A DNA stretch of 64,000 nt, from NCBI RefSeq assembly GCF_058153355.1, contig NZ_CM177019.1; one strand, written 5' to 3'. This document shows, in pieces, positions 31,382 through 38,137 of the stretch (positions are counted from its first letter, which is position 1; the number at the start of each line of letters is the position of its first letter). Both the position numbers and the translations under genes were made by a program. The notes beneath the pieces were generated by a model. That model was not told the origin of the DNA and made no database searches. It was given only the letters and a program-made list of their open reading frames with translations.

Positions 31382-31395
31382 CTTTACTGTATATC

Positions 31396-31438
31396 GAGCA
31401 ATGCCATTACGTGCATAAAATTGGCATTGCTCTTTCTT
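31396..31438 (+). terminator. Rho-independent terminator after treA
   Basis: Perfect 11-bp stem gagcaatgcca/tggcattgctc with a 15-nt loop followed by tttctt. Confidence 0.6.
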
Positions 31439-31710
31439 CATCACGAAATACCACTCTTTCTACAGTCTATGCCTTTATTTTCTTTTATTAGGGAAGATTT
31501 TAATTTTATTTTATCAACTTGTTAATCATTACACCTCTATTTATATTTTCCCCCACTCCCCATTCTCCCTGACAATTTTCTTGTGGAACAAAGTGTTATT
31601 TAAGAAACAAGCAAATCATTCTGTCTCTTTAGACAAATTTTGACATCAAACATGATCTTTTTCGCTATATGTGTAAGTATATAGCGGTTTTAATTATCAG
31701 GATATTACTT

Positions 31711-32733
31711 ATGTCACTAACCAGACGGAGGTTTACACAGATTCTTGCGTCGACATTGTTCCTGCATCATCTGCCGTCCTTTGCACAATCAGTCAAATTC
31801 TGGGCCTCACTGACGCTTCCCGAAGCCCAAAACATTACACGCATCGTCAGCGCAGGCGCGCCCGCCGATTTACTATTGCTGGCTGTCGCGCCAGAAAAAA
31901 TGGTCGGTTTTTCCTCTTTTGATTTTGCCCGTCAGGCATTAATTCCATTGCCAGAGCACATTCGCCAGTTCCCCAGGCTGGGACGACTCGCCGGGCGCGC
32001 CAGCACACTCTCGCTGGAAGGGCTTATGGCATTACATCCCGATTTGGTCGTTGATTGCGGCAATACGGATGAAACCTGGATCTCCCAGGCACGGCAGGTT
32101 AGCGAACAGACACAAATACCCTGGTTATTGCTTAACGGGAAACTGGAACAATCAGCAGAACAGTTAACAACGCTTGGCAAAACGTTAGGCGAAGAGCACC
32201 GCGCCGCAGAACAAGCCAATCTCGCCAGCCGCTTCGTTGGTGAAGCTCAGGCATTCGCCACCTCACCCGCCGCTAACCTCAGCTTTTATGCTGCGCGCGG
32301 TCCTCGAGGGCTGGAAACGGGCTTACAGGATTCGTTGCATACCGAGGCGGCGGAATTATTAGGTTTGCACAACGTCGCGCAAATAGCCGATCGCCACGGT
32401 CTGACACAGGTTTCCATGGAAAATCTCCTGCGCTGGCAGCCGGATATTATTCTGGTTCAGGAGGCCGTTACTGCAGATTTTATTCGTCGTGATCCTCTCT
32501 GGCAGGGCGTGAAAGCGGTTGCGGAACAACGCATCTTATTTTTAAGTGGCCTGCCCTTTGGCTGGCTGGATGCCCCGCCGGGAATCAACCGTCTTCTGGG
32601 ATTACGCAGACTTCACGCCTGGCTGGATCCCGCCATCAATCGCCAGTTTAAAAGTGACATGCAGCATTACGCCCAACTGTTCTGGCATTGTTCACTCAGT
32701 GACGCCGACTATCAAAAATTGGTGGCGAGCTAA
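31711..32733 (+). CDS. Periplasmic substrate-binding protein of an iron-chelate/cobalamin-type (FecB/BtuF/FhuD class) ABC transporter
   Basis: ORF track 354 aa; probable start at ATG 31711 (MSLTRRRFTQILASTLFLHH..., twin-arginine-like signal); family assigned from overall sequence character and operon context. Confidence 0.7.
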   Translation: MSLTRRRFTQILASTLFLHHLPSFAQSVKFWASLTLPEAQNITRIVSAGAPADLLLLAVAPEKMVGFSSFDFARQALIPLPEHIRQFPRLGRLAGRASTLSLEGLMALHPDLVVDCGNTDETWISQARQVSEQTQIPWLLLNGKLEQSAEQLTTLGKTLGEEHRAAEQANLASRFVGEAQAFATSPAANLSFYAARGPRGLETGLQDSLHTEAAELLGLHNVAQIADRHGLTQVSMENLLRWQPDIILVQEAVTADFIRRDPLWQGVKAVAEQRILFLSGLPFGWLDAPPGINRLLGLRRLHAWLDPAINRQFKSDMQHYAQLFWHCSLSDADYQKLVAS

Positions 32734-35290: not shown

Positions 35291-36141
35291 TTTTCCTTTC
35301 TCAGGCACAAATCGATGCGTTACTGCTGGAAGATATCCAGGGCGGTGACCTGACCACGCGAGCATTAAATATTGGACACCAGCATGGCTATATAGAGTTT
35401 TTTCTCCGTCAGGGCGGCTGCGTCAGCGGCATTTCTGTCGCGTGTAAGATGTTAACTACGCTGGGATTAACTATTGATGACGCGGTCAGCGACGGTTCAC
35501 AAGCGAACGCGGGTCAGCGGCTAATCCGTGCGCAAGGTAATGCCGCAGCACTTCATCAGGGATGGAAGGCAGTCCAGAATGTGCTGGAGTGGAGTTGCGG
35601 TGTTTCTGATTATCTCTCTCAAATGCTGGCGTTACTTCGTGAACGTTACCCTGATGGCAATATCGCCTGCACCCGAAAAGCAATTCCGGGTACCCGCTTA
35701 CTGGCCTCGCAGGCAATTCTGGCTGCCGGAGGACTGATTCATCGTGCCGGATGTGCGGAAACCATATTATTGTTTGCCAACCACCGCCATTTTCTTCATG
35801 ACAATCAGGACTGGTCAGGCGCAATCAATCAGTTACGTCGCCACGCACCCGAGAAGAAAATAGTTGTTGAAGCCGACACGCCGAAAGAGGCAATCGCCGC
35901 GTTACGCGCGCAACCAGACGTACTTCAGCTCGACAAATTTAGTCCGCAACAGGCAACTGAAATTGCGCAAATAGCACCGTCGCTGGCTCCCCACTGCACG
36001 CTGGCTCTGACCGGCGGAATTAATCTGACAACACTCAAAAATTACCTCGACTGCGGCATTCGCCTTTTTATTACCTCCGCGCCTTACTACGCGGCACCTG
36101 CTGACATTAAAGTCAGTCTGCAACCCGCAGCCTCTATTTAA
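35287..36141 (+). CDS. ModD-like protein (NadC/quinolinate phosphoribosyltransferase family)
   Basis: ORF track 284 aa; aligns by eye with E. coli NadC in several blocks (TRK-IPG-R, AGG-HR, LDNF-like LQLDKF, SGNV-like LTGGINLTTL); start overlaps the methyltransferase stop. Confidence 0.65.
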   Translation: MIFLSQAQIDALLLEDIQGGDLTTRALNIGHQHGYIEFFLRQGGCVSGISVACKMLTTLGLTIDDAVSDGSQANAGQRLIRAQGNAAALHQGWKAVQNVLEWSCGVSDYLSQMLALLRERYPDGNIACTRKAIPGTRLLASQAILAAGGLIHRAGCAETILLFANHRHFLHDNQDWSGAINQLRRHAPEKKIVVEADTPKEAIAALRAQPDVLQLDKFSPQQATEIAQIAPSLAPHCTLALTGGINLTTLKNYLDCGIRLFITSAPYYAAPADIKVSLQPAASI

Positions 36142-36166
36142 TTCTTTGTTAAACGGAATTTATTCT

Positions 36167-38137
36167 ATGAGACTCAAAAAACGTTATCTCTGCACAGTAT
36201 TATCACTTGCCTTTACCCAGCAGGCCGTAGCAGCTCAGGAGAGCGACACGCTGACCGTATGGTCCAGTCCGGTATCATCAACGACGACCACCGTTCTCGA
36301 TCAACCCACCATGAAGGCCCTGGATAAACAGAATGTCGCTCAGGCATTAAGTGTCGTCCCCGGCGTGGTACTGCAAAAGTCAGGTAGCCGCAACGAAGAA
36401 CAGGTCAAAGTTCGTGGCTTTGATAGTCGTCAGGTGCCGGTCTATTTCGACGGTGTGCCCATTTATGTTCCCTATGACGGCAACCTCGATCTGGCGCGGA
36501 TTCTGACCAACAATTTGGGGGCAGTTGAAGTTTCCAAAGGGTATTCGTCGCTGCTTCAGGGGCCTAATCAGATGGGCGGAGCCATTAATATCACCACCCA
36601 GAAGCCAACAAAACCTCTGGAAGCAAGTCTGGGATATCGCCAGGGATGGAGCCGTAGCCAGGACAATGCCTACGATATGCATGCTTCATTTGCCGCCAGC
36701 AGCGATCTGGGGTATTTGCAAGTCAGCGGTAGCCAGCTAAAGCAGGATTTTCTCGGCCTGCCGCATGGTGTAAATAATGATATTGCAGGCAAACACGGCA
36801 AGATGATTAATTCATCGGCTGATGATAAACGCGGCATTGTGAAGCTCGGTTTTACACCACGCGAAAACGATGAATACACATTGACTTACATTAAGCAGGA
36901 TGGTGAAAAAGATAACCCGCCATACAGTGGAAATAGTGGTCAGAAATCACGCTACTGGCAGTGGCCAGAGTATGACAAAGAAAGTTTTTATTATCAGGGA
37001 ACGACCCAACTAAACGATCGTTTTACCCTGAAAAGTCGGCTGTATCGCGACACCTTTGAAAATACGCTAATGATGTACAACTCGCTGGCTGATTTGAAAA
37101 ATAAAAAAGGCAGCTACAGCCATTATTCCGATTACAGCGACGGTGCCGGGTTACAACTGGCAGCCGATGTGCGTGAAAACGATCTGCTGTCGTTTGCCGT
37201 TAACTGGAAAGATGACGTACACCGGGAAAAAGGTGCGCCGCACGCCGCTTACGATCGCTATGAAGATCGTACCTGGTCGCTCGCCAGTGAATATCAATGG
37301 GCTGCTGCCGATAATGTCGATGTCGTGGCTGGAATCAGCTATGACTGGCGCGATAGCGTAGAAGCGAAAAAACATGAGAAAGATGGCAGTATCACCCATT
37401 ATGACGACAACAATCAGTCAGCTTTTAACTGGCAGGTGATGGGGAAATACCACTTTGCCAATGAAGACACGCTGGCGCTTTCGTACTATGACCGCACACG
37501 CTTTCCGACGCTGAAAGAACGCTATACCACGTCCAAACCTGCGTATAACCAGATAGCGATTGTTAACCCGCAGCTCAAGCCGGAACGCGCGCGCGGGGTG
37601 GATTTAACCTGGAATGGTGCCTTCACGCACGACTGGGGATTTGAGGTCAGCGTTTACTATAACCGGGTGAGTGATGCCATCCTCTCGCACAATATCGATG
37701 CCGATACCATTCAAAATCAGAACAGCGGCATGGTGGATTACAGCGGTCTGGATGCCGGTATTAAGGGGAAAATCAGCAATATACTGGATGTAGGATTGAG
37801 CTACGCCCTGATCCACGCTGACGCCAAACGCAAAGACATCGGCAAGATAACCGATCTGCCAACGCAGACAATGACCGCATGGATGACTCTCAAACCGTGG
37901 GAGCCGTTAAGCGTAACGCTGTCGGAAGAGGCGCGTTCCTCCAGCTACAGCAACAGTGACGGTTCACAAAAAGCCGCCGGTTTTGCGGTGACCCACATTC
38001 GAGCCGATTACACCTTAGGTCATGGCTTCAGCGTTAATGCGTCGGTCAATAACCTGTTTGATACCAAATATGCCTACAGTGAAGGGTTTATTGAAGAAGG
38101 TCGCAATTTCTGGGCAGGTGTCGAATATACGTTCTGA
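36167..38137 (+). CDS. TonB-dependent outer membrane receptor
   Basis: ORF track 663 aa; probable start ATG 36167 (MRLKKRYLCTVLSLAFTQQAVAAQE); TonB-box-like DTLTVW after the signal peptide; C-terminal ...AGVEYTF with terminal Phe. Confidence 0.85.
   Translation: MRLKKRYLCTVLSLAFTQQAVAAQESDTLTVWSSPVSSTTTTVLDQPTMKALDKQNVAQALSVVPGVVLQKSGSRNEEQVKVRGFDSRQVPVYFDGVPIYVPYDGNLDLARILTNNLGAVEVSKGYSSLLQGPNQMGGAINITTQKPTKPLEASLGYRQGWSRSQDNAYDMHASFAASSDLGYLQVSGSQLKQDFLGLPHGVNNDIAGKHGKMINSSADDKRGIVKLGFTPRENDEYTLTYIKQDGEKDNPPYSGNSGQKSRYWQWPEYDKESFYYQGTTQLNDRFTLKSRLYRDTFENTLMMYNSLADLKNKKGSYSHYSDYSDGAGLQLAADVRENDLLSFAVNWKDDVHREKGAPHAAYDRYEDRTWSLASEYQWAAADNVDVVAGISYDWRDSVEAKKHEKDGSITHYDDNNQSAFNWQVMGKYHFANEDTLALSYYDRTRFPTLKERYTTSKPAYNQIAIVNPQLKPERARGVDLTWNGAFTHDWGFEVSVYYNRVSDAILSHNIDADTIQNQNSGMVDYSGLDAGIKGKISNILDVGLSYALIHADAKRKDIGKITDLPTQTMTAWMTLKPWEPLSVTLSEEARSSSYSNSDGSQKAAGFAVTHIRADYTLGHGFSVNASVNNLFDTKYAYSEGFIEEGRNFWAGVEYTF

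Follow-up and report, generated by a model that had tools for sequence, protein, structure and literature searches.

A predicted ModE operator and a MolBC-like importer point to molybdenum or tungsten acquisition by the accessory prrA-modD-yc73-fepC locus of Escherichia coli

What does the accessory gene cluster between treA and ymgE, in the 64-kb stretch of E. coli DNA analyzed here (the window), take up? The original prediction had placed there an accessory TonB-dependent uptake locus of six overlapping or closely spaced same-strand genes, absent from K-12, and this description proved correct. All six open reading frames were in fact found where they had been placed, tightly packed on the + strand between positions 31711 and 38137 in the order binding protein (PBP), FecCD-type permease, ATPase, SAM methyltransferase, ModD and TonB-dependent receptor (Table 1), and the first, second and fourth of their junctions are overlaps of 1, 4 and 4 nt (the last between the methyltransferase stop and the ModD start), the third and fifth gaps of 9 and 25 nt. 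The six family assignments were also right, as seen from the ModD and methyltransferase profiles, the FecCD/BtuC family of the permease and the plug and barrel of the receptor. In K-12 MG1655 the treA-ymgE interval holds ycgY alone, as had been claimed, while the annotation of 2 further E. coli strains places the same six genes between treA and ymgE. Among 5426 complete E. coli genomes, 2149 gave a match of at least 95% identity, nearly all of these matches spanning 80% or more of the region, and the identity of the locus across E. coli is 97.8-99.7%.

Table 1. Features of the six-gene locus and its upstream region (positions in the window).
Feature	Position	Strand	Basis
treA terminator hairpin	31396..31432	+	perfect 11-nt inverted repeat GAGCAATGCCA / TGGCATTGCTC, then T-rich run
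-35-like hexamer TTGACA	31640..31645	+	read from sequence; ends 17 nt 5' of the ModE box
Predicted operator for ModE (molybdate-responsive regulator)	31663..31686	.	CGCTATAT-gtgtaagt-ATATAGCG, perfect 8+8 palindrome
Ribosome-binding site AGGA	31699..31702	+	sequence; 8 nt 5' of the ATG at 31711
Periplasmic class III (Peripla_BP_2-type) substrate-binding protein	31711..32733	+	family match; conserved twin-arginine signal peptide
Type II ABC importer permease, FecCD/BtuC family, MolB-like	32733..33713	+	best PDB match HI1471 MolB
ABC ATPase, MolC-like, GTG start	33710..34468	+	nearest bacterial importer ATPase HI1470 MolC
Class I SAM-dependent methyltransferase	34478..35290	+	Pfam Methyltransf_25/31/11/12
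ModD, quinolinate-phosphoribosyltransferase fold, molybdenum-transport-associated	35287..36141	+	TIGR01334 profile match
TonB-dependent outer-membrane receptor 'PrrA', 656 aa	36167..38137	+	plug + barrel; TonB box DTLTVWS after signal peptide

The cluster already has a name, prrA-modD-yc73-fepC, which the original prediction had missed and under which it has been published as a pathotype-associated genomic region for putative iron uptake (PMC1890555, PMC12928451). The same locus is also O-island 55 (S-loop 83, ECs1693-1699) of E. coli O157:H7, is present in CFT073 and other ExPEC, and is carried, at the species level, by P. mirabilis. Our literature search found no functional study of the cluster, and nowhere any mention of ModE control, similarity to MolBC, or molybdenum; because it is named but uncharacterised, the cluster is not one of the known, characterised siderophore or B12 systems. 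In spite of its long-standing label as a putative iron uptake locus, the evidence presented here points to molybdenum (or tungsten).

The original prediction had held that the substrate could not be inferred from sequence, and had suggested that 31440-31710 be searched for Fur, Zur or riboswitch elements. The interval contains none of these and has instead a perfect, conserved ModE operator which, along with the MolBC-like ABC module, does point to a substrate, Mo or W. This predicted operator, CGCTATAT-N8-ATATAGCG, ends 24 nt 5' of the first start codon and is the only match in the 64-kb window to CGNTATAT-N8-ATATANCG when two or fewer mismatches are allowed (0.11 expected). It shows 0 mismatches to the half-site pattern common to the K-12 sites upstream of modA, moaA and dmsA (taken from NC_000913.3), shares their architecture, and fits the published ModE consensus, ATCGnTATATA-N6-TATATAnCGAT (PMC545781). 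Based on the distance from TTGACA, the -10 element must fall in the left half of the box; its weak fit to consensus in E. coli counts against the reading. We infer from the sequence that ModE binds this site in vivo, and from the site geometry only that it represses.

ModE also activates some promoters (moa, dms), and its RefSeq product name is that of a dual regulator. Both speak for an alternative in which ModE-molybdate would activate the operon, as it does moa and dms, for a function under Mo-replete conditions, namely the handling of excess or analogue oxyanions rather than Mo scavenging; examples would be tungstate discrimination, or the detoxification, by methylation, of tellurite- or selenite-like anions imported alongside. 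Haemophilus MolBC-A does work at high molybdate (PMC4031551), and a TehB-family methyltransferase adjoins a homologous receptor in loci L085/L086. The box, however, is found 3' of the -35-like hexamer and 5' of the start codon, and in Morganellaceae directly 3' of a -35/-10 pair, a placement that corresponds to repressor geometry, as at modA. Furthermore, molybdate represses, and does not induce, Haemophilus molB (PMC4031551), and an energy-costly TonB receptor makes little sense if the substrate is abundant. We thus regard activation by ModE-molybdate as improbable.

The predicted ModE box is kept at the matching position in approximately 50 species from approximately 15 Enterobacterales genera while its flanks diverge, to the point that between genera the flanks cannot be aligned and the box and a -35-like TTGAC are retained. 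A scan of loci from 68 species (1.31 Mb in all) gave 25 perfect boxes against 0.005 expected, and 42 one-mismatch boxes against 0.21 expected. Nearly all of these sites are located 18-35 nt 5' of the PBP start, or else 5' of the receptor, of methyltransferase-ModD, or of ModD alone. A TTGA(C/T)n hexamer is found 17-18 nt 5' of the box in the Enterobacteriaceae, Erwiniaceae and Serratia loci compared, and in Proteus, Providencia, Morganella and one Pectobacterium a TTGAC(T/C) -35 with a -10-like hexamer directly abuts it. All 13 loci in which at least 119 nt separate the ModD and receptor genes (from Morganellaceae, Pectobacterium and one Serratia) carry a second box 5' of the receptor gene. 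The same scan also returned a perfect box 59 nt 5' of anfA; ModE sites have been described in Azotobacter anfA promoters (PMC9542535).

Uptake of iron, as siderophore or haem, is the function given by the RefSeq annotation, where the PBP is an 'iron ABC transporter substrate-binding protein', and by the literature label of 'possibly mediating iron uptake' (PMC1890555, PMC12928451). The parts do generally resemble those of iron-chelate systems: the receptor matches TonB-siderophore and haemin receptor subfamilies, and the PBP gives weak, FecB/FepB/IsdE-like NCBIfam matches. Every NCBIfam match to an iron family is, however, far under its cut-off, and the published claim is based on homology only. 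No Fur box within 3 mismatches is present, nor is there a conserved Fur-like site among 27 orthologous upstream regions; the best matches carry 4-10 mismatches, and most of them do not outscore shuffled sequence. The ModE operator is conserved instead. As the nearest characterised ABC homologue also imports molybdate and not iron, the iron reading is disfavoured, and we consider it very improbable.

That homologue is the Haemophilus MolBC-A system (HI1470-1472), a type II importer that binds and imports molybdate and tungstate and is repressed by molybdate (PMC4031551). Among solved permeases and importer ATPases, its MolB and MolC come closest to those of the locus. Against structures in the PDB, the permease scores 221 bits with HI1471 MolB, compared to 171 with HmuU and 144 with BtuC, and is 41-42% identical to Haemophilus MolB (41% by BLASTP), while HI1470 MolC, at 126 bits, is the top-scoring bacterial importer ATPase among solved structures (36% identity to Haemophilus-type MolC by tblastn). 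The two systems also share a class III PBP and an association with modD (HI1473 in H. influenzae), which adjoins molABC both in the literature (PMC3928620) and in the sequence inspected here, as well as ModE-like boxes, located in Haemophilus 5' of molA and of a neighbouring modA-like gene. Unlike the six-gene locus, the Haemophilus system has neither a TonB-dependent receptor nor a methyltransferase and differs in gene order, and MolA, whose signal is of the Sec and not the Tat type, aligns with the E. coli PBP over part of its length at only about 26% identity. Compared to ModABC/ModE of E. coli K-12, the operator is of the same sequence type and similarly placed near the first start codon (that of modA), and Mo supply is the presumed function; ModABC, however, belongs to the type I importers, works with a class II binding protein and lacks an outer-membrane component, and the six-gene locus is accessory and missing from K-12.

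Top NCBIfam matches of the permease and ATPase include an archaeal-type BtuC and a corrinoid ABC ATPase, the best (weak) match of the methyltransferase is the corrinoid-protein-associated CpaM, with BchM and CbiT weak as well, and the TonB box resembles that of BtuB. This would suit the salvage of corrinoids or other tetrapyrroles, with the methyltransferase and the phosphoribosyltransferase-like ModD remodeling the imported cofactor. All of these profile matches are nonetheless well under their cut-offs, MolB itself yields the same BtuC-like pattern, ModD is not CobT-like, and no Rfam match at E <= 1, cobalamin riboswitch included, was obtained in 31000-38600. Because corrinoid salvage would also leave the ModE regulation and the Mo-gene contexts unexplained, we see hardly any likelihood in it.

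The binding protein sets the specificity of an importer, and here the PBP counts against the Mo/W reading. Its start at ATG 31711 is also the RefSeq start and the Met at which the orthologue alignment begins, and the twin-arginine-like signal originally noted is borne out by R5 and R6, invariant in 12 orthologues. Among solved structures its best relative is Sulfurospirillum 4PAG, of no stated function (profile E 1e-43, TM 0.79-0.83), and Haemophilus MolA (3PSA) ranks third to fifth (E 1.7e-13, TM 0.65-0.67, 20-26% identity), structurally no nearer than several uncharacterised or iron-related binding proteins.

For the receptor no close relative exists among solved structures. Homologues with 33-37% identity sit in modE-modA-modB-modC-mop-receptor-TonB operons and similar contexts. 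Eight distinct contexts of such non-orthologous homologues were of readable length; modE, modA, mop, moa, XdhC or FmdE genes occur in five of these, and ModE-like boxes stand immediately upstream in several. A 45%-identical receptor belongs to a five-gene module with a ModE-like box 5' of its PBP gene. Counting against Mo or W, free molybdate is small enough for porins, so that a TonB-dependent receptor is not obviously needed. TonB receptors that are under metal regulation and work with ABC importers are familiar (ZnuD/Zur for zinc, FrpB4/NikR for nickel, OprC/NosA for copper, BtuB-BtuFCD for B12). These systems follow the same plan, in which a metal-specific repressor controls an energised receptor feeding a binding protein and ABC importer when the metal is scarce; the locus differs in adding two cytoplasmic enzymes, and our literature search found no TonB-dependent receptor for Mo or W.

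The conserved ModE site, together with a transporter that most resembles an established molybdate importer, makes it likely that this is a ModE-controlled, TonB-energised Mo (or W) acquisition operon and not an iron system, and the island would probably be a Mo-scavenging system that has an outer-membrane receptor to itself. With ample molybdate, ModE-molybdate would bind the operator and, as this overlaps the -10/start region of the single promoter, all six genes would be off; scarcity of Mo would de-repress them. The receptor, energised by TonB-ExbBD, would then carry a Mo/W species (free molybdate/tungstate or a loose complex) across the outer membrane, and the Tat-exported PBP would pass it to the MolB2C2-like type II importer for delivery to the cytoplasm, where ModD and the co-translated methyltransferase may work on the imported species or on a by-product. 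Both the cargo and the roles of the enzymes are given here as we infer them. Against this reading, a modA mutant of P. mirabilis is still Mo-starved below ~1.6 uM Mo (PMC10174112), which suggests that the locus does not simply replace ModABC in laboratory medium, although the strain of that mutant may not carry it.

ModD supports a link to molybdenum. It scores 504 bits on TIGR01334 (cut-off 179), and 135 bits as NadC, a candidate rejected for falling under the cut-off of 198. Its nearest structure is the Mtb QPRTase 1QPN (E 5e-20), with which it shares the fold, the T-R-K and H-R motifs and the acidic Mg/PRPP residues E195 and D216; the PRPP/Mg and anion-binding residues are retained except for Lys172 and Asp173 of the Mtb enzyme, replaced by Phe163, invariant in 12 ModD sequences, and Ala164. 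In contrast to NadC, for which E. coli owns a separate nadC, ModD is seen in Mo contexts. It is 46% identical to the ModD adjoining Haemophilus-type molABC, and without a receptor it also occurs next to modABC-type transporters, Mop or anf genes, including a modA/TIGR01581-type transporter in Cedecea and an anfHDGK/anfA/Mop neighbourhood; every other ModD context observed is Mo-linked, and G. sulfurreducens has a modDABC operon (PMC545781).

Neither a methyltransferase nor a phosphoribosyltransferase-like enzyme has an obvious part in oxyanion uptake, which counts against the Mo/W reading. It is possible, as originally suggested, that the cargo is chemically modified after import. One alternative would retain the regulation and make the cargo Mo in complex with an organic chelator of microbial or host origin, for example a catecholate, pirated as a molybdophore, with the methyltransferase, and in Enterobacterales also ModD, disabling the ligand in the cytoplasm to free molybdate. 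Chelates are the typical cargo of TonB receptors and of class III PBP/type II ABC importers, and the PBP is far from the oxyanion-binding MolA. The methyltransferase, moreover, is present in all five receptor/ABC module variants observed (the window, L077, L082, L089 and L090), and homologues with 30-41% identity accompany the same module in distant bacteria. Low free molybdate does not rescue the P. mirabilis modA mutant (PMC10174112), and in Azotobacter the induction of TonB receptor/ABC operons requires that Mo and V be absent (PMC9542535). Homologous receptors, however, occur together with ModABC-type transporters too, in which ModA binds the free oxyanion (L076, L081), and the pathway of MolBC-A, the nearest characterised importer, is narrow and conducts the bare oxyanion (PMC4245157). 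Genes for chelator biosynthesis are absent from the locus and its immediate surroundings, and structural comparison of the methyltransferase model (pLDDT 85.8) returned only generic small-molecule methyltransferases (TM 0.45-0.6), its fold pointing to no particular substrate, catechol or other. We consider the uptake of chelated Mo rather unlikely.

Upstream of the six genes, the treA terminator hairpin lies 14 nt past the treA stop codon and marks the 5' boundary of the inserted locus.

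All six genes named in the original prediction were found on the + strand with the ends it gave, and its family calls held on profile searching (ModD, a SAM methyltransferase, a FecCD/BtuC-type permease and a TonB-dependent receptor), as did the twin-arginine signal of the periplasmic binding protein (PBP), whose two arginines are invariant in 12 orthologues. The genes are packed as a single unit: the first two junctions are overlaps of 1 and 4 nt, a gap of 9 nt comes next, and the last two are an overlap of 4 nt and a gap of 25 nt. The cluster is indeed missing from K-12 MG1655, where only ycgY lies between treA and ymgE. 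It is, in fact, E. coli O-island 55, or prrA-modD-yc73-fepC, as the six genes, the flanks and near-identical DNA all agree. This cluster has been described as O-island 55 / S-loop 83 (ECs1693-1699) of O157:H7 (PMC1890555, PMC12928451), is also found in CFT073, APEC and AIEC, and was "proposed to be involved in iron uptake" (PMC1890555; PMC12928451, citing Ye & Xu 2001). It is thus already known as a genomic island, and not by its function: we found no functional study of it in the searchable literature, subscription papers being outside our scope, and RefSeq labels its products "iron ABC transporter", "ModD protein", "class I SAM-dependent methyltransferase" and "TonB-dependent receptor". Of 5426 complete E. 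coli genomes, 2149 match the region with an identity of at least 95%, and in almost every case the match spans 80% or more of it; the best E. coli match is 99.7% identical. The annotation of two other E. coli strains places it equally between treA and ymgE, and O157:H7 ATCC 43890 shows the same flanks and 97.8% identity over 100% of the length. Eight of 2152 matching places are on plasmids and not on chromosomes, so the cluster is mobilised now and then. A 3.2-kb contig labelled "MAG: Collinsella sp." (JAIJJM010000374.1; L006) encodes proteins 98-100% identical to the ATPase, methyltransferase, ModD and receptor of E. coli; it almost certainly belongs to E. coli and was mis-binned into the MAG of an actinobacterium.

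Coordinates of the cluster, its predicted operator and other features in the window and in comparison loci (L-numbers, loci retrieved from other genomes)
Feature	Sequence	Position	Strand	Remarks
PBP	Window	31711-32733	+	ORF
Permease	Window	32733-33713	+	FecCD/BtuC-type
ATPase	Window	33710-34468	+	ORF
Methyltransferase	Window	34478-35290	+	Generic class I SAM-methyltransferase Pfam families
ModD	Window	35287-36141	+	TIGR01334
TonB-dependent receptor	Window	36167-38137	+	Full-length; DTLTVWS TonB box
Predicted ModE box	Window	31663-31686		Perfect palindrome
Rejected upstream start of PBP gene	Window	31669-31710		ATG at 31669, in frame
treA terminator hairpin	Window	31396-31432
Fur-consensus match	Window	18151-18169		GAAAATGATAACCAGTATC
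treA, residues 1-145	Window	27207-27641
treA, residues 144-565	Window	30113-31378
IS66-family element	Window	27644-30112		2.47 kb; three ORFs, on - strand
IS66-family ORF, 523 aa	Window	27674-29245	-
IS66-family ORF, 115 aa	Window	29265-29612	-
IS66-family ORF, 142 aa	Window	29609-30037	-
ModE-like box before modA-like gene	L087	4879-4902		2 mismatches
ModE-like box before molA	L087	7905-7928		3 mismatches
Second ModE-type box	L031	10945-10968
Second ModE-type box	L062	10931-10954
Second ModE-type box	L050	8601-8624
ModD between anf cluster and di-Mop gene	L064	1822-11318
Receptor/SBP/DHOR trio	L080	2773-7512
Receptor/SBP/DHOR trio	L084	8001-12519
Receptor/SBP/DHOR trio	L085	8001-12723
Methyltransferase pseudogene	L075	4603-5415		Internal stop (RefSeq)
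Frameshifted treA	L075	1-1500		RefSeq

The leader of the operon holds a perfect palindrome, CGCTATAT-N8-ATATAGCG, 24 nt ahead of the ATG at 31711 and 12 nt ahead of an AGGA ribosome-binding site, which we read as a predicted operator for the molybdate-sensing regulator ModE. The ModE consensus has been given as ATCGnTATATA-N6-TATATAnCGAT, also written (AT)CGnTATATA-N6-TATATAnCG(AT) (PMC545781). The predicted box reads CGCTATATg-tgtaag-TATATAGCG, with no mismatch to a core of two 8-nt half-sites set 8 nt apart (8-N8-8), and across the 64-kb window it is the sole match at up to two mismatches, against 0.11 expected. The modA, moaA and dmsA operons of E. coli are controlled by ModE (PMC10845959 and its references); their K-12 upstream sites (CGTTATATtgtcgcctACATAACG, 19 nt before the ATG, for modA; CGCTATATacatgattACATAGCG for moaA; CGATGTATacaagcctATATAGCG for dmsA) have the same 8-N8-8 architecture with one mismatch each, the window site fitting the consensus better than any of them. 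A terminator scan also flagged the palindrome, and that reading was rejected because the stem has only 3 G-C pairs, because it sits within the leader, close before the start codon, while treA has a terminator hairpin elsewhere, and because its sequence is kept as a ModE box across genera. An in-frame ATG inside the box, from which the longest ORF would begin, was likewise discarded as the start of the first gene, since the ribosome-binding site, the RefSeq start and the orthologues, which align from the later methionine, all place it at 31711. No convincing consensus placement of a -10 element was obtained in the E. coli leader, either by scanning or by eye, and our promoter reading leans on the spacing of the -35, which is conserved, and on the Morganellaceae, whose promoters are clearer. 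In O157:H7 ATCC 43890 (L075) the box is perfect and five of the cluster genes are intact, the methyltransferase gene and treA being recorded by RefSeq as a pseudogene and as frameshifted, respectively.

A ModD-based scan with one genome per species yielded 68 loci, 1.31 Mb in total, about 50 of which carry the same six genes in the same order (in Escherichia, Citrobacter, Raoultella, Klebsiella indica, Enterobacter, Yokenella, Serratia, Symbiopectobacterium, Pantoea, Erwinia, Pectobacterium, Affinibrenneria, Proteus, Providencia and Morganella), with protein identities down to 44-60%. In nearly all of these six-gene loci, across some 15 genera, the PBP start is preceded at 18-35 nt by a box with at most two mismatches. 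When the leaders are aligned on the box, their flanks cannot be aligned between genera; what is retained is the box itself and, 17-18 nt ahead of it, a -35-like TTGA(C/T). Over the 1.31 Mb, 25 boxes without mismatch were observed against 0.005 expected, 42 with one mismatch against 0.21 and 18 with two against 4.1; three-mismatch boxes (46 against 48.7) are at background level. With both a consensus site and a phylogenetic footprint, the operon qualifies as a candidate member of the ModE regulon. A second ModE-type box (consensus CGTTATATAAAaAantAtATAtcG) was seen 25-45 nt upstream of the receptor gene in 13 loci of Proteus, Providencia, Morganella, Pectobacterium and one Serratia (Serratia sp. 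H1w); it is present where the ModD-receptor gap measures 119-1064 nt and absent at gaps of 29-87 nt, and from it the receptor gene is predicted to be itself a ModE target. Further boxes lie ahead of methyltransferase-ModD pairs lacking a transporter in two Edwardsiella species, of methyltransferase-ModD-receptor in Intestinirhabdus and of a lone ModD in Cedecea. In three diazotrophic Enterobacterales (L063, L064 and L065) a box without mismatch lies 59 nt ahead of anfA; ModE sites are found at the anfA promoters of Azotobacter (PMC9542535). These three are Acerihabitans arboris and two Enterobacterales MAGs, and besides the box before anfA there is a weaker one near the Mop gene.

In our reading ModE would repress the operon, and not activate it, because the -35-like hexamer is on one side of the box and the start codon on the other, the same placement as at modA, and because in the Morganellaceae it comes directly after a -35/-10 pair; there, and in one Pectobacterium, the box immediately adjoins a TTGAC(T/C) -35 and a -10-like hexamer. 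Haemophilus molB is repressed by molybdate (PMC4031551), which is the same direction. A role in molybdenum-replete cells or in detoxification is possible, although it poorly fits this geometry of the site.

The current annotation, uptake of iron as siderophore or haem, has family-level resemblance as its sole basis and is contradicted by what we found. Upstream of the cluster there is no Fur-consensus match within 3 mismatches; the best in the leader is mismatched at 6 of 19 positions and overlaps the ModE box, and a scan of 27 orthologous leaders gave no conserved Fur site, the matches being mostly no better than those in shuffled sequences. The NCBIfam iron-family matches are, moreover, all far below their cut-offs (FecB 33 bits against 320, TonB-siderophore 128 against 224). 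The one Fur-consensus match within 3 mismatches in the window lies far from the cluster, and a Zur scan, with a result for one locus only, gave a best match with 9 mismatches. Salvage of corrinoids is contradicted as well, by the lack of a riboswitch: an Rfam scan of 31000-38600 returned no match at E <= 1, on which both a B12 and a Moco riboswitch were rejected. BtuB models score 69-79 bits against cut-offs of 600-836, BtuC stays below its own, and this explanation would leave the ModE box unaccounted for.

The permease and the ATPase appear instead to be orthologous to MolB and MolC of MolBC-A, the molybdate/tungstate importer of Haemophilus influenzae. The best solved homologue of the permease is HI1471 MolB (221 bits and 41% identity, against 171 bits for HmuU and 144 for BtuC), and the top bacterial importer match of the ATPase is HI1470 MolC (126 bits, 36% identity); no NCBIfam models exist for MolA, MolB or MolC. 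MolB is 55-57% identical to FecCD permeases of Pectobacterium, Symbiopectobacterium and Brenneria, which were compared as proteins, whether or not they belong to such clusters. MolBC-A is a type II importer that contributes to the uptake of molybdenum in vivo; molybdate represses it by way of an "unknown factor" (PMC4031551, PMC4245157). Haemophilus molABC adjoins modD (HI1473) and a modA-like ABC system (PMC3928620). Linkage to modD is therefore shared by both operons. In a Haemophilus-type locus (L087) the order is modA-like, modB-like, ATPase, ModD, MolA, MolB, MolC, with ModD directly upstream of molA and identities to the window proteins of 46% for ModD, 42% for MolB and 36% for MolC. A ModE-like box precedes the modA-like gene there by about 35 nt, and another, CATTATATAAATATGTGTATAATG, precedes molA by 30 nt; these boxes may identify the "unknown factor" acting on molB (Rice et al. 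2014); if the molybdenum reading of the window operon is true, that factor is probably ModE. The PBP is the weak link of the comparison. The structure model and Foldseek confirm the class III fold, and the identity to HI1472 MolA is only 20-26%, with a profile E of 1.7e-13 over part of the protein and a TM of 0.65-0.67. MolA ranks third by profile search and fifth by fold among the solved relatives of the PBP, and 4PAG of Sulfurospirillum, whose record gives no function, is clearly closer (E 1e-43, TM 0.8).

The receptor has the plug, 22-strand barrel and N-terminal TonB box of a TonB-dependent receptor, with DTLTVWS following its signal peptide. It matches TonB receptor subfamily models over its full length, and its homologues carry PF07715 and PF00593. 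An exhaustive search returned 394 representatives at E < 1e-30, and the genomic contexts of the nearest ones fall into two recurring arrangements. In one the receptor is wired to ModABC, and in the other it accompanies a MolBC-like importer, a class III PBP and a homologous methyltransferase (30-41% identity), ModD being an addition found in the Enterobacterales versions. Going by these neighbourhoods, the receptor family is linked to molybdenum beyond the Enterobacterales. L080 showed only the receptor-SBP-oxidoreductase part, no molybdenum gene was seen in the context of L078/L079, and the L088 contig was too short for its context to be read.

Gene neighbourhoods of receptor homologues
Locus	Receptor identity	Genes	ModE box
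L081	33%	modE, modA, Oxidored_molyb, modB, modC, mop, receptor, TonB_C	Perfect, before modE
L076	34%	HTH/PBP-like regulator, modB/modC/modA-like, receptor, Oxidored_molyb-like, second ModA-like
L084	33%	ModE-N-terminal HTH, ModA-like, receptor, SBP, di-haem oxidoreductase; moaC/moaD/moaE nearby	2 mismatches, before ModA-like gene and before receptor gene
L085, L086	35%	di-Mop, HTH, receptor, SBP, di-haem oxidoreductase, TehB-type methyltransferase
L082, L083	34%	receptor, FmdE, methyltransferase, FecCD, ATPase, Peripla_BP_2, DUF364, XdhC
L077	34%	PBP, permease, ATPase, methyltransferase, unknown gene, receptor
L089	32%	receptor, PBP, permease, ATPase, methyltransferase
L090	43-45%	PBP, permease, ATPase, methyltransferase, receptor	2 mismatches, 17 nt before PBP gene

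A trio also recurs among these loci, made of a homologous TonB receptor, an SBP_bac_1/11 binding protein of 414-444 aa and a DHOR di-haem oxidoreductase, and in two of three cases it stands beside Mop, ModE-N-terminal HTH, ModA-like or moaCDE genes.

ModD received its name in the Rhodobacter modABCD operon and, to our knowledge, has had no function assigned since then. The protein encoded here scores 503.9 bits on TIGR01334 (cut-off 178.85) and 134.8 on NadC (cut-off 198.4), and no solved structure of ModD was found. Compared with the QPRTase of M. tuberculosis, it retains the two acidic Mg/PRPP residues as well as the motifs T-R-K and H-R; Lys172 of that enzyme is replaced by Phe, invariant in 12 ModD sequences, and Asp173 by Ala. 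ModD lies within a modDABC operon in Geobacter (PMC545781) and in the nif island of Zymomonas (PMC8600466). In Cedecea it is found beside a modA/TIGR01581-type transporter with two boxes, and in L063-L065 between an Fe-only nitrogenase cluster (anfHDGK, anfO, anfA) and a di-Mop molbindin. The methyltransferase gave a good structure model (pLDDT 85.8), with which Foldseek returned only generic class I small-molecule methyltransferases and no clue to the substrate.

Taken together, we consider it likely that the operon is a molybdenum/tungsten acquisition system repressed by ModE, in which the cargo would pass from the TonB-dependent receptor to the PBP and on to the MolBC-like importer, with the methyltransferase and ModD as cytoplasmic accessory enzymes. 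Within this reading we lean somewhat towards a bare oxyanion, because homologous receptors are wired to ModABC, over a complex; the latter is favoured by the constancy of the methyltransferase, by the distance of the PBP from MolA, by the chelates that such machinery usually carries, and by a P. mirabilis modA mutant that fails to grow at low free molybdate (PMC10174112). A fuller scenario, in which the receptor family is the missing outer-membrane step for molybdenum/tungsten, the Enterobacterales cargo is chelated or modified molybdenum, and the methyltransferase and ModD dismantle it in an act of piracy, seems to us rather unlikely with all its parts combined. If true, it would provide the first TonB-dependent transporter for a group-6 metal, and the "virulence-associated iron island" of ExPEC, EHEC, Proteus, Providencia and Morganella would be a molybdenum-piracy system backing respiration on nitrate, formate and S-/N-oxides, both in the urinary tract and in the inflamed gut.

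Molybdoenzymes such as nitrate reductases, formate dehydrogenases and DMSO/TMAO reductases are the basis of Enterobacteriaceae blooms in the inflamed gut and of urinary-tract fitness, and this role makes molybdenum supply a plausible virulence and drug target. If our reading is right, 40% of complete E. coli genomes hold a mis-annotated molybdenum system, as do many genomes of Proteus, Providencia, Morganella, Citrobacter and Pectobacterium; ModD would gain a tractable genetic context in E. coli, and the cluster would be a concrete candidate for the passage of scarce molybdate through the outer membrane. For this membrane, a 2025 paper on molybdate uptake names the Pseudomonas T6SS-ModA/IcmP route alone. 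We believe the predicted ModE control of the cluster, its MolBC-A kinship and the ties of its receptor family to mod genes to be new to the accessible literature. No paper linking the cluster to ModE or molybdenum was found there, "ModE" being nearly unsearchable as a word, and RegPrecise-type databases and subscription papers falling outside the scope of the search.

Upstream of the cluster, treA is split in this strain by an IS66-family element flanked by an 8-bp target duplication, so that the periplasmic trehalase is probably inactive.
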